32,000 bases of DNA from assembly GCA_000008085.1 (NCBI GenBank), contig AE017199.1, positions 150,001 through 182,000 on the forward strand. Direction: 5' to 3'. Positions within the stretch are counted from its first letter, which is position 1; each line of letters starts with the position of its first letter. The position numbers and the translations under genes were made by a program. Under the pieces are notes generated by a model. It worked only from the letters and a program-made list of their open reading frames with translations. It did no database searches and was not told the DNA's origin. The DNA is from Nanoarchaeum equitans Kin4-M (GTDB lineage: Archaea; Nanobdellota; Nanobdellia; Nanobdellales; Nanoarchaeaceae). Shown piece after piece: positions 1,992 through 15,358 of this stretch.

Positions 1992-2078
1992 GGGGCCGTA
2001 GCTCAGCCAGGCAGAGCGGCGGATTCGAAGCCGAAGCTCCAGACCCGTAGGTCGGGGGTTCGAATCCCCCCGGCCCCA
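1992..2078 (+). tRNA. tRNA-Trp (anticodon CCA at 2039-2041) with a 13-nt intron at 2023-2035, between positions 30 and 31
   Basis: The acceptor is GGGGCCG/CGGCCCC with discriminator A. The D arm is GCTC-AGCCAGGCA-GAGC. The T arm is GGGGG-TTCGAAT-CCCCC. Removing ATTCGAAGCCGAA gives anticodon stem GCGGG/CCCGT and loop CTCCAGA, for a 74-nt mature tRNA. The pre-tRNA forms a BHB: GAG-CGGC-[GG|A]-UUCGAA-GCCG-[AA|G]-CUC. No CCA is encoded. Confidence 0.85.
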
Positions 2079-2109: not shown

Positions 2110-3540
2110 GTGTGGGCAATTGTTGAAAAGGTTGTCCAAAAGTTGCCTACAATAAAAAAACCAAAATATTTAACTAATTTGGATAGATTAAAATGGAGCG
2201 CAATCGCAGTTATTTTATATCTTTTATTGTCTTATACCCCATTAATTGGGGTTTCTCAAACTGGGGCCGGAGTATTTGAGGAATTGGTAGTTTTATTAGG
2301 AGCGAGCTTTGGATCTATAGTTTCTTTAGGTATAGGCCCCATAATAATAGGTTATCTATTGGCAGAACTATTTATTGGATCTGGAGAGCTAAATATAGAT
2401 ATAACCACAGAGGAAGGCAAAAGAAAATTCGAGAATTTAGCTAGATTTTTTATGATAGTTTTTGGTTTGTTTGAATCTATAGTAATGGCCACAATAGGTT
2501 GGTTTAAGCCTTCTCAATTTTTAATATCTTTATTTGCAATGCCTTTTTCTTTTTTAGGAAGTAACGCCTTCTTAATAGGTTATATTTTAGCAGTTTTATT
2601 TATTGTTGCACAATTAATGTTGGGAGTAATATTAGCTTATTTATTAGATGATTTGTCTCAAAAATGGGGTTTTACCTCTGGGATCAATTTATTTATATTA
2701 GCCACAGTATCGAGAGAATTGTTTGTGCAATTGTTTAACCCATTGACACAAATCCCTGGGACTCCTACTCCTCCAATAGGTAAAATCCCCCAAATCTTTT
2801 ATTTCATATCCCAAGGTTTATACACAGAAGCGATAGTAGTAGGGTTGCAACTATTAGTTATAGTTTTAGTAATATTATTGTCGGTCTATTTTTATATGGT
2901 TAAAATACCAATTCCAACGAGTTTCGGTAAAATTCCTGAAAAAAGCTTAAGATACGAAGTTAGATTGATATACACTGGGAATATCCCAGTTATATTCGCT
3001 TTCGCATTTTTACATCAAATATTATTAATAGCATGGGTTTTGCAGCAATTGGGAATACCATTATTAGGCACAATAGAGAATGGCCATCCCATTAATGGAT
3101 TGGTAGCCTACATTTATCCCGATACAGGCTTTCTAATATCTTTAATTTTGGGTAATCTTACTTTAGATAATTTAATAAGAACTATAACTTCTTCGCTATT
3201 CTTTTTAGGTTCATCAATATTGTTTAGTATATATTTTGTATTAGCCACTGGCCAAGATTCTGAAGGTTTAGCAAAACAATTATCAAAAATGTTTGGAAGG
3301 ATAGGACTAAAAAGGGATTATAGAATAATAAAGCATTATTTGGATAAAATAATTCCTTGTGTAACCGTATTAGGTGGTTTCATTGTTGGATTTTTGGCTT
3401 TGCTAAGTTATTGGGTTTCTATCCCAATTGGAGGGACATCGATATTGTTAGCAACGATGATATCTTATATGGTGTATGAACAATTGAAAGAAACAGGGAT
3501 ACTTAAAGAATTAACGCAAATCATTTCTAAACTAGAATAA
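2110..3540 (+). CDS. secY: Preprotein translocase subunit SecY
   Basis: 476 aa with 10 predicted TM helices. The N-terminus KLPTIKKPKYLTNLDRLKWSAIAVILYLLLSYTPLIG is typical of archaeal SecY/Sec61alpha. GTG start. Confidence 0.93.
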   Translation: MWAIVEKVVQKLPTIKKPKYLTNLDRLKWSAIAVILYLLLSYTPLIGVSQTGAGVFEELVVLLGASFGSIVSLGIGPIIIGYLLAELFIGSGELNIDITTEEGKRKFENLARFFMIVFGLFESIVMATIGWFKPSQFLISLFAMPFSFLGSNAFLIGYILAVLFIVAQLMLGVILAYLLDDLSQKWGFTSGINLFILATVSRELFVQLFNPLTQIPGTPTPPIGKIPQIFYFISQGLYTEAIVVGLQLLVIVLVILLSVYFYMVKIPIPTSFGKIPEKSLRYEVRLIYTGNIPVIFAFAFLHQILLIAWVLQQLGIPLLGTIENGHPINGLVAYIYPDTGFLISLILGNLTLDNLIRTITSSLFFLGSSILFSIYFVLATGQDSEGLAKQLSKMFGRIGLKRDYRIIKHYLDKIIPCVTVLGGFIVGFLALLSYWVSIPIGGTSILLATMISYMVYEQLKETGILKELTQIISKLE

Positions 3541-13995: not shown

Positions 13996-14080
13996 CCGGG
14001 CGTAGCTCAGCGGCAGAGCGGCCGGCTGTAGTTGTATAGCAGATACCGGCAGGTCGGGGGTTCGAATCCCCCCGCCCGGA
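13996..14080 (+). tRNA. tRNA-Tyr (anticodon GTA at 14028-14030) with a 13-nt canonical 37/38 intron at 14032-14044
   Basis: The acceptor is CCGGGCG/CGCCCGG, giving the C1:G72 pair typical of archaeal tRNA-Tyr, with discriminator A. The anticodon stem is GCCGG/CCGGC and the loop is CTGTAG[intron]A. The BHB is CUGU/GCAG (4 bp) flanked by bulges AG|U and AU|A. The T arm is GGGGG-TTCGAAT-CCCCC. Confidence 0.9.
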
Positions 14081-14115
14081 CTTACCTTTTCATTATTACT
14101 TTTTTTAGAATAAAA

Positions 14116-14164
14116 TCTGTCGAAACCTCCATCATCATAATTCAGCGCACTACGACTTCTTCAC
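14116..14164 (-). ncRNA. Candidate C/D box sRNA (2'-O-methylation guide), 4 nt downstream of tRNA-Val
   Basis: The minus strand reads GTGAAGA (C, 14164-14158), then AGTCGTAGTGCG (12 nt), CTGA (D', 14145-14142), ATT, ATGATGA (C', 14138-14132), TGGAGGTTTCGA (12 nt) and CAGA (D, 14119-14116), followed by TTTT. The spacing is the canonical archaeal 7-12-4-3-7-12-4. The terminal C and D boxes each carry one mismatch, at the positions that normally form the U-U pair and the flipped-out U. Confidence 0.55.
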
Positions 14165-14168
14165 AAAA

Positions 14169-14240
14169 TGGGCCCGCGGGGATTCGAACCCCGGACCTCC
14201 GCCTTGTAAGGGCGGCGTCATACCCCTAGACTACGGGCCC
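14169..14240 (-). tRNA. tRNA-Val (anticodon TAC)
   Basis: The reverse complement is GGGCCCG-TA-GTCT-AGGGGTA-TGAC-G-CCGCC-CTTACAA-GGCGG-AGGTC-CGGGG-TTCGAAT-CCCCG-CGGGCCC-A. No CCA is encoded. Confidence 0.9.
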
Positions 14241-14260
14241 AGAAGGCAATTAACTTTTGA

Positions 14261-14266
14261 TTTAAA
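14261..14266 (-). promoter_or_regulatory. TATA core for tRNA-Val (and the downstream sRNA candidate)
   Basis: The minus strand reads attatattTTTAAAtca. The centre (14263.5) is 23.5 nt from tRNA nucleotide 1 (14240). Confidence 0.65.
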
Positions 14267-14281
14267 AATATAATGCTAATG

Positions 14282-14309: not shown

Positions 14310-14654
14310 ATGGTGTTAGAAATAGGAAGAGTTGTTGTTAAAACTGCCGGCCGCGAGGCCGGAAGAGTAGGAGTAGTAGTAGACATTATAGATAGGAATT
14401 TCGTATTAATCGATGGCGATTTAAAGAGAAGAAAAGTAAATGTTAAACATGTGGAACCAACTCCAAAGAAAATAGACATACCAAAAGGGGCTGATACGAG
14501 AACAGTTGTTGAAAAAATGATAGAAAATGGAATAAAAGTTAGCCTATGGAAATTAAGAAGGGACAATCTAAAAGATTTGGTTGATAAATTAATAGAAAAA
14601 TTCCCAGAAGTAAAAGAAGATTTAGAGAGGTTAAAAGCTATAGGTAAATGGTAA
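14310..14654 (+). CDS. rpl14e: Ribosomal protein L14e (eL14)
   Basis: EIGRVVVKTAGREAGRVGVVVDIIDRNFVLIDG...KRRKVNVKHVEPT is the KOW-type L14e signature. A helical C-terminal tail follows. Confidence 0.85.
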   Translation: MVLEIGRVVVKTAGREAGRVGVVVDIIDRNFVLIDGDLKRRKVNVKHVEPTPKKIDIPKGADTRTVVEKMIENGIKVSLWKLRRDNLKDLVDKLIEKFPEVKEDLERLKAIGKW

Positions 14655-14685: not shown

Positions 14686-14946
14686 ATGGACATTAACGAA
14701 ATTAGAAGACATGTAATGGAAGGAAAAGCTGTAATAGGTACAAACAAAACTCTTAAATTGTTAAAGCTTGGACAACTTTCTGCTGTAGTATTAGCTAAAA
14801 ATGTTCCCGATTATATAAAAGAAGACATAGAATATTATGCCAAACTATCTAATATACCAGTAATACAAGTAGATTTGTTTAACGATGAATTAGGCGCAGC
14901 TCTAAAGAAAAGGTTTAAAGTTAGTGTTGTAGGAATCTTAAAATAA
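14686..14946 (+). CDS. rpl30e: Ribosomal protein L30e (eL30)
   Basis: GKAVIGTNKTLKLLKLGQLSAVVLAKNVPDYIKEDIEYYAKLSNIPV...ELGAALKKRFKVSVVGI matches the L30e/L7Ae-fold pattern. It has the conserved position upstream of nusA. A TTTAAA at 14658-14663 lies 25.5 nt upstream. Confidence 0.85.
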   Translation: MDINEIRRHVMEGKAVIGTNKTLKLLKLGQLSAVVLAKNVPDYIKEDIEYYAKLSNIPVIQVDLFNDELGAALKKRFKVSVVGILK

Positions 14947-14947
14947 T

Positions 14948-15358
14948 ATGGACGATATAGTTTTGGCTTTTGAAGCCATTACTGGAGGTAAACCGATCGC
15001 TTATTATGATGATGGTAAGAGAATACTATTTGTGGTAGATGGTAAAAATGTTGGCAAATACATAGGCAAAGGCGGAAAAAACGTTAAGCTTTTATCTACA
15101 GCATTGAAAAGAGACATATATATTGCCGGTTATTATGAAGATCCTGTTCAATTCATAAAAAGTTTCTATAGAGAATTAGATATAAGCGAAATCGTAAAAG
15201 AAGGCAATAAATATATTGTTAAAATAAACGATAGACAACAAAGGGCTATGGCTATAGGAAAAGAAGGATGGAGAATAAATCTATTAAATAGAGCTTTAAA
15301 AGAATTGTATAATGCTAGTGCTGAGATTTTTCAACCCAAGGAAGAAAACCAACAATGA
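14948..15358 (+). CDS. nusA: Archaeal NusA-like protein (two KH domains)
   Basis: Two KH GxxG loops are present (IGKGGKNVK and IGKEGWRIN). It is 136 aa and sits immediately after rpl30e, as in other archaea. Confidence 0.85.
   Translation: MDDIVLAFEAITGGKPIAYYDDGKRILFVVDGKNVGKYIGKGGKNVKLLSTALKRDIYIAGYYEDPVQFIKSFYRELDISEIVKEGNKYIVKINDRQQRAMAIGKEGWRINLLNRALKELYNASAEIFQPKEENQQ

Follow-up and report, generated by a model that had tools for sequence, protein, structure and literature searches.

The candidate unit of a tRNA-Val gene and a C/D box sRNA that had been read from the window (the whole 32,000-nucleotide stretch of Nanoarchaeum equitans DNA analyzed here) is, by sequence identity, the C/D box sRNA8 of this organism (Neq sR08). 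This RNA has already been published, and the gene was thus rediscovered, with nothing new in it. The explanation that best fits the evidence as a whole, and that we regard as highly probable, is that sRNA8 lies 4 nt downstream of tRNA-Val(UAC) and is expressed with the tRNA as one transcription unit. Publications from 2012 and 2015, followed by a 2021 review, already cover the gene and how abundant its RNA is, as well as its link to tRNA-Val, the RNase Z model, and the 16S rRNA target; the discovery value of the locus is low.

Identity and layout of the locus

The published sRNA8 and its 40-nt flanks were identical at 136 of 136 nt to window positions 14208 to 14073 on the minus strand, and the offset between window and genome coordinates was exactly 150,000 (the window is genome 150001-182000). 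The sRNA8 sequence, TTTTGTGAAGAAGTCGTAGTGCGCTGAATTATGATGATGGAGGTTTCGACAGATTT, is tabulated at genome 164113-164168 in Additional file 2 of Randau 2012 (Genome Biol 13:R63; PMC3491384), with the context "tRNATyr->sRNA8<-tRNAVal<-", the remark "tRNA-sRNA", and 40 nt on each side, the upstream 40 being the 3' part of tRNA-Val. Neq sR8 was also catalogued by Dennis et al. 2015 (BMC Genomics 16:632; PMC4644070). The candidate and the RNA in these two sources share sequence, position, strand, and neighbors (tRNA-Val and tRNA-Tyr), and there was no difference between them. Additionally, the open reading frames (ORFs) flanking the tRNA cluster were exact matches to NEQ177 (threonyl-tRNA synthetase, AAR39031.1) and NEQ178 (AAR39032.1) of N. 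equitans Kin4-M.

The earlier note had read the locus as a dicistronic tRNA-Val/C/D sRNA unit, which is the same proposal that Randau 2012 made for the identical sequence (PMC3491384). The tRNA-sRNA case was called the first in prokaryotes there and was likened to plant tRNA-snoRNA genes, and a 2021 review restates the arrangement of tRNA-Val and sRNA8. The stable RNA that the note expected from the minus strand at about 14112-14168 is also on record: RNA-seq gave a 56-nt RNA at 14113-14168, and its coverage of 207,100 reads was the highest among the 26 published N. equitans C/D sRNAs (PMC3491384).

On the minus strand, the discriminator of tRNA-Val(TAC) is followed by 4 nt, then by GUGAAGA-12-CUGA-AUU-AUGAUGA-12-CAGA, and then by a T-run. 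The features of the locus, with boxes, guides, and loop as read from the sequence, are as follows, in the direction of transcription.

14260..14274, minus strand: A/T-only block ATTATATTTTTAAAT, spanning -34 to -20 relative to tRNA-Val base 1; likely TATA/BRE promoter
14169..14240, minus strand: tRNA-Val(TAC), with discriminator A at 14169 and no encoded CCA; Rfam RF00005, 71.7 bits, and ARAGORN
14113..14168, minus strand: mature sRNA8, 56 nt, with ends from published RNA-seq; N. equitans genome 164113-164168
14165..14168, minus strand: UUUU spacer, nt 1-4 of mature sRNA8, adjoining the discriminator, where RNase Z is proposed to cut
14158..14164, minus strand: box C, variant GUGAAGA
14146..14157, minus strand: D' guide AGUCGUAGUGCG, 12 nt
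14142..14145, minus strand: box D', CUGA, canonical
14139..14141, minus strand: AUU loop (K-loop), 3 nt, separating D' from C'
14132..14138, minus strand: box C', AUGAUGA, canonical
14120..14131, minus strand: D guide UGGAGGUUUCGA, 12 nt
14116..14119, minus strand: box D, variant CAGA
14107..14115, minus strand: T-run UUUUAUUCU, probable oligo-T terminator that contains the mature 3' end (14113)

Both strands of the whole window were scanned for the pattern C-(10-13)-D'-(3-9)-C'-(10-13)-D allowing no more than 2 box mismatches in total. The sRNA8 site was the single match, and the same scan of 100 first-order Markov shuffles of the window gave none; thus, the box pattern is not a chance pattern. 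A relaxed scan of the whole window with the N. equitans box variants again returned the sRNA8 site alone. These scans agree with the published table, in which sRNA8 is the only one of the 26 sRNAs in genome 150001-182000 (PMC3491384). The spacings given in the earlier note (a 4-nt gap and then 12, 3, and 12 nt) were borne out on the minus-strand sequence, as were its perfect internal boxes (AUGAUGA and CUGA) and the single deviation it had seen in each terminal box (U5 to A in GUGAAGA and U2 to A in CAGA). Both guide spacers of 12 nt are as for archaeal box C/D sRNA.

In the Rfam search of the window, at gathering and at permissive thresholds, only tRNAs were found, and sRNA8 had no family match above the cutoff. 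Its subthreshold matches were to sR2 (13.9 bits; cutoff, 42) and sR17 (11.2 bits; cutoff, 36), with snoR9 also far below. A reading of raw sequence can recover a true archaeal guide RNA with nonconsensus boxes that Rfam misses. Folding gave no significant self-structure for sRNA8 (z = -0.10), and in the folded precursor of tRNA-Val and sRNA8 the tRNA and the sRNA were separate modules.

Terminal box variants

We surveyed the boxes of 25 of the 26 published N. equitans sRNAs; the permuted sRNA24 was left out. At C-box position 5 and D-box position 2, the 25 terminal motifs carried U/U in 15 cases, A/A in 8, and A/U in 2, and the internal motifs of the same 25 sRNAs were U/U (16), A/A (4), A/U (3), A/C (1), and C/U (1). 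The CAGA box always occurred with GAAGA: there were 12 A/A motifs against 0 CAGA boxes without GAAGA (Fisher p = 1.5e-7). All 8 terminal CAGA D boxes were paired with a GAAGA C box, which was present in 10/25 sRNAs. By this survey, the terminal boxes of sRNA8 are a normal co-varying N. equitans variant and not a degenerate motif. The GAAGA/CAGA pair is a regular kink-turn variant in N. equitans, and automated C/D finders should allow for it. The 3-nt loop between D' and C' was also the commonest length among the parsed sRNAs.

The earlier note had held that the D-box change turns the usual U-U pair of the kink-turn into U-A, which is wrong. A replaces U both at C-box position 5 and at D-box position 2, so the terminal kink-turn carries A.A rather than U.U as its 3b.3n pair; its G.A/A.G core is unaltered.

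The fact that both terminal boxes are off consensus, together with the lack of a significant Rfam match, could be taken to mean that the box pattern arose by chance or is a decayed motif without function. However, the deviations are those of the regular co-varying variant, no such pattern appeared in the 100 shuffles, and the guide is conserved in many archaea (see below). The abundant, discrete 56-nt RNA seen by RNA-seq refutes this explanation (PMC3491384), and we give it practically no weight. A functional guide RNA is the reading kept here.

As regards the protein components, L7Ae would bind the terminal C/D kink-turn (the A.A variant GUGAAGA/CAGA) and the canonical internal C'/D' K-loop, and Nop5 and fibrillarin would then assemble on sRNA8. 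Fibrillarin (NEQ125) and NOP56 (NEQ342) are encoded by N. equitans (PMC3491384). We infer both the assembly of the sRNA8 RNP and the target methylations. In the survey, 16/25 sRNAs had GAAGA in one motif only (C or C'), 1/25 had it in both motifs, and 8/25 lacked it, an asymmetry that might reflect a requirement of RNP assembly.

An 86-amino-acid ORF of the L7Ae family lies about 500 nt from sRNA8 (window 14686-14946, plus strand). It was considered as the kink-turn binder L7Ae and rejected, as it corresponds to ribosomal protein L30e (76 bits; curated cutoff, 77), and it thus has no functional link to sRNA8. Two further ORFs of this neighborhood encode ribosomal protein L14e (NEQ178, 14310-14654) and a NusA-like KH protein (14948-15358).

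Proposed transcription and processing with tRNA-Val

The A/T-only 8-mers upstream of tRNA-Val span -34 to -20 relative to its first base, and the usual archaeal TATA position is near -26/-27. The A/T-only block sits where the archaeal TATA box of a leaderless tRNA is expected and is, for this reason, the likely promoter of the whole tRNA-Val-sRNA8 unit. N. equitans tRNAs are transcribed without a leader (PMC3491384), which fits an organism without RNase P. No A/T-rich element was found within 45 nt upstream of the sRNA8 5' end, where all of the sequence is G+C-rich tRNA; the promoter-like block is present only upstream of tRNA-Val and not before sRNA8. The statement in the earlier note that sRNA8 has no TATA element of its own is in agreement with this result.

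The published 5' end of sRNA8 (genome 164168) corresponds to window position 14168, the base directly after discriminator A14169. Mature sRNA8 starts with U, which is typical of processed transcripts and not of primary ones, which start with a purine (PMC3491384). In that study, RNase Z processing of the precursor is said to generate the 5' end of the sRNA, as a proposal and not a demonstration ("potential dicistronic tRNA-sRNA precursors"). The release of sRNA8 from a tRNA-Val-promoted transcript by tRNA 3' processing, as the earlier note had suggested, is supported by the position of the 5' end at the RNase Z site and was proposed likewise in PMC3491384.

In the proposed sequence of events, RNA polymerase would start at the first tRNA-Val base, from the A/T-rich promoter about 26 nt upstream, pass through the 4-U spacer, and stop in the T-run 3' of box D. 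A cut by RNase Z (NEQ064) after the discriminator would both finish the tRNA 3' end and create the 5' end of sRNA8 (UUUUGUGAAGA...). We infer both the co-transcription of tRNA-Val and sRNA8 and the role of RNase Z as the nuclease. Oligo-T is an archaeal termination signal, and on this basis the T-run is the putative terminator.

The same signal speaks against co-transcription, since the TTTT directly 3' of the tRNA-Val discriminator could terminate and read-through must be assumed. Thus, sRNA8 could instead be transcribed independently, with tRNA-Val ending at TTTT and the matching ends reflecting tight packing in a reduced genome. Some N. equitans sRNAs are known to have promoters of their own (PMC3491384), and the environmental sRNA8 orthologue described below has no tRNA beside it, and its C box is preceded, about 25 to 33 nt upstream, by the A/T-rich stretch AAATTTTTA. 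However, independent transcription of sRNA8 is difficult to reconcile with the lack of an A/T-rich element in the 45 nt upstream of it, with its 5' U in place of the purine of primary transcripts (PMC3491384), and with a 5' end exactly at the RNase Z position, and we consider it very improbable. If tRNA-Val and sRNA8 are co-transcribed, as we prefer, the 4-U spacer might act as a leaky terminator that sets the ratio of tRNA-Val to sRNA8.

Predicted target of the D guide

The N. equitans 16S rRNA (1,500 nt) was rebuilt from its row in Additional file 4 of Dennis et al. 2015 (PMC4644070). Scans of a genome collection with two patterns exact for this 16S found no N. equitans record; one pattern gave 0 matches and the other gave 2, both in Verrucomicrobiota MAG contigs and presumably chance matches.

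The best ungapped match of the D guide on 16S was 365-376, GCGAAACCUCCG, with 10 contiguous Watson-Crick pairs and 1 G.U and with two end positions without Watson-Crick pairs. The RNAduplex energy at this site was -18.6 kcal/mol, A369 was paired opposite guide position 5, and 33/2000 shuffled guides scored as well on 16S. The D guide would pair with 16S rRNA 366-376 and direct 2'-O-methylation of A369. The same site was predicted in both published analyses. In Randau 2012, the PLEXY target of the D guide is 16S position 369 (GCGAAmACCTCCGC), with no target for D' (PMC3491384), and Dennis et al. 2015 give 16S A375 for D and 16S C333 for D' in pan-archaeal alignment numbering (PMC4644070). Columns 375 and 333 of that alignment correspond to N. 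equitans 16S A369 and C327; counted along the E. coli row, these would be approximately E. coli A364 and C322. The predicted function of the D guide is thus well supported.

The earlier note had predicted perfect 12-mer targets for both guides. Perfect matches were absent from 16S, whereas the D guide does have a 16S target at 365-376. The search of rRNA and tRNA genes that it called for was likewise successful for one guide only, with the D guide on 16S A369 and the D' guide without a perfect target, its best site (16S 323-334) being weak. We found no report of methylation at 16S A369 or C327, and the text of the RiboMeth-seq study of Seistrup et al. 2017 (PMC5389701) covers only the 3' end of 16S. 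For another N. equitans sRNA, sR13, the text of this study describes guide-directed 2'-O-methylations as verified (PMC5389701).

The five tRNAs of the window were tried as targets and set aside: the D guide gave only T-loop matches with two internal mismatches, and the D' guide gave none. The guides of sRNA8 had no match to tRNA-Val. The core of the D guide, GGAGGUUUCGA (14120-14131), is the same as the tRNA-Val segment 14182-14198 on the minus strand, GGAGGU[CCGGGG]UUCGA, minus the six bracketed bases. This likeness is probably a coincidence, because the 16S target dictates the guide, which also recurs in sRNAs that are not linked to a tRNA.

Recurrence of the D guide in environmental archaea

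A metagenome scan for a C or C' box, followed by GGAGGTTTCG and then by a D or D' box, gave 43 loci. At least 23 of these had a complete C-D'-C'-D arrangement under a strict test; the guide GGAGGUUUCG occupied the D position in 14 of them and the D' position in 9, and the partner guides of these environmental C/D sRNAs varied. By these sequence matches, the 16S A369 site is a recurrent C/D target in environmental archaea. In one locus (L007), the partner guide is perfectly complementary over 10 nt to N. equitans 16S near position 110.

One locus (L011, positions 3124-3170, plus strand) reads ATGTTGA-GGTCGTAGTGCG-CTGA-AAT-ATGATGA-CGGAGGTTTCGT-CTGA and has both sRNA8 guides (GGUCGUAGUGCG and CGGAGGUUUCGU), with the D' guide identical at 11/12 positions. 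This locus looks like a true orthologue of sRNA8. Its C box is AUGUUGA, with U at the sheared-A position, and its D box is CUGA; no tRNA was present within 4.9 kb. A 100-amino-acid ORF would begin within its C' box.

ARAGORN runs on 15 loci that carry the sRNA8 D guide placed a tRNA nearby in 0/15. Close relatives were sought through homologues of NEQ178 (five loci); synteny was lost in them, and the tRNA-Val-sRNA8 unit was absent. In the data examined, the fusion of tRNA-Val and sRNA8 was found only in N. equitans and in identical metagenome contigs (L001-L004). Because the guide recurs in loci without a tRNA and the rearranged neighborhoods of the relatives are without the unit, the sRNA8 family predates its fusion to tRNA-Val and is more widely distributed than that fusion.

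The D' guide

The D' guide of sRNA8 had no good match in 16S or 23S rRNA. Its lowest-energy site on 16S was 323-334, GGCACUGAGACA (-14.6 kcal/mol), with C327 at N+5, 8 Watson-Crick pairs, 1 G.U, and an internal A.G mismatch, and its pair count on 16S was equalled by 1402/2000 shuffled guides. This is the same site as the 16S C333 of Dennis et al. in alignment numbering (PMC4644070). For 23S, the evidence consists of a substring search of the alignment and two published target predictions (PMC3491384 and PMC4644070); in the substring search, no 8-mer of the perfect D' complement was found in the 16S and 23S alignments of seven archaea. By pairing 42 nt upstream of the A369 site, the D' guide may direct methylation of C327.

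A true target of the D' guide was considered because 11/12 of its positions are kept in the environmental orthologue despite wholly different flanks and context. It could be a tRNA or another non-rRNA molecule, or else the guide could hold 16S 323-334 by the A369 site as a chaperone; taken jointly with a leaky 4-U spacer, this combination is rather doubtful.

It can also be argued that sRNA8 is mainly an rRNA-folding chaperone, whose guides would hold together two parts of 16S, near C327 and A369 and separated by 42 nt, during early assembly, with methylation at D' secondary or absent. Chaperone roles for double-guide sRNAs were argued by Dennis et al., with examples from N. equitans (PMC4644070), and sRNA8 is by far the most abundant N. 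equitans sRNA (PMC3491384). The two predicted sites are near each other in 16S, and the orthologue keeps the D' guide (11/12) despite the imperfect D' duplex. However, the D guide fully meets the rules for methylation (10 to 11 contiguous pairs with N+5 paired), and the pairing of D' is indistinguishable from chance. A main role as chaperone therefore seems unlikely to us, and it would in any case be compatible with methylation rather than exclusive of it.

Comparison with other tRNA-linked guide RNAs

The plant tRNA-snoRNA genes, as they are presented where Kruszka et al. 2003 (EMBO J 22:621) is cited in PMC3491384, resemble the sRNA8 unit in that a C/D guide lies directly 3' of a tRNA, uses the tRNA promoter, and receives its 5' end from RNase Z. 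According to the same account, plant tRNA-Gly-snoR43 genes are eukaryotic Pol III units whose processing was shown experimentally, whereas sRNA8 is archaeal and its processing is deduced from RNA-seq ends; no common descent of the plant and N. equitans units is implied.

Among archaea, a tRNA-Ser-sRNA in Ignicoccus hospitalis and a tRNA-Pro-sRNA in Thermoproteus tenax are listed in the 2021 review, and N. equitans sRNA3 and sRNA14 have tRNA-Gly neighbors (PMC3491384). The other archaeal fusions of a tRNA and a C/D sRNA have the same arrangement as sRNA8 and the same proposed biogenesis by tRNA 3' maturation, but they involve other tRNAs and other guides, and for this reason they look like independent occurrences. 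The C/D guides that are freed by the splicing endonuclease are likewise coupled to tRNA processing and can act in cis on the host tRNA. In contrast, the sRNA8 sequence is not part of the tRNA, and neither of its guides matches tRNA-Val.

Other tRNAs in the window

Window 13996-14081 on the plus strand was called tRNA-Thr(TGT) by ARAGORN and reads ...GCCGG-CU-GUA-G, with an insert of roughly 13 nt separating this part from ACCGGC. From this arrangement, it is identified as an intron-containing tRNA-Tyr(GUA), which matches the published context "tRNATyr->sRNA8" (PMC3491384). A second element on the plus strand, at window 1992-2078 (87 nt), was reported by ARAGORN as "tRNA-???" and matched the Rfam tRNA family with 56 bits; it contains CUCCAGA and may be an intron-containing tRNA-Trp(CCA) with a nonstandard intron position.
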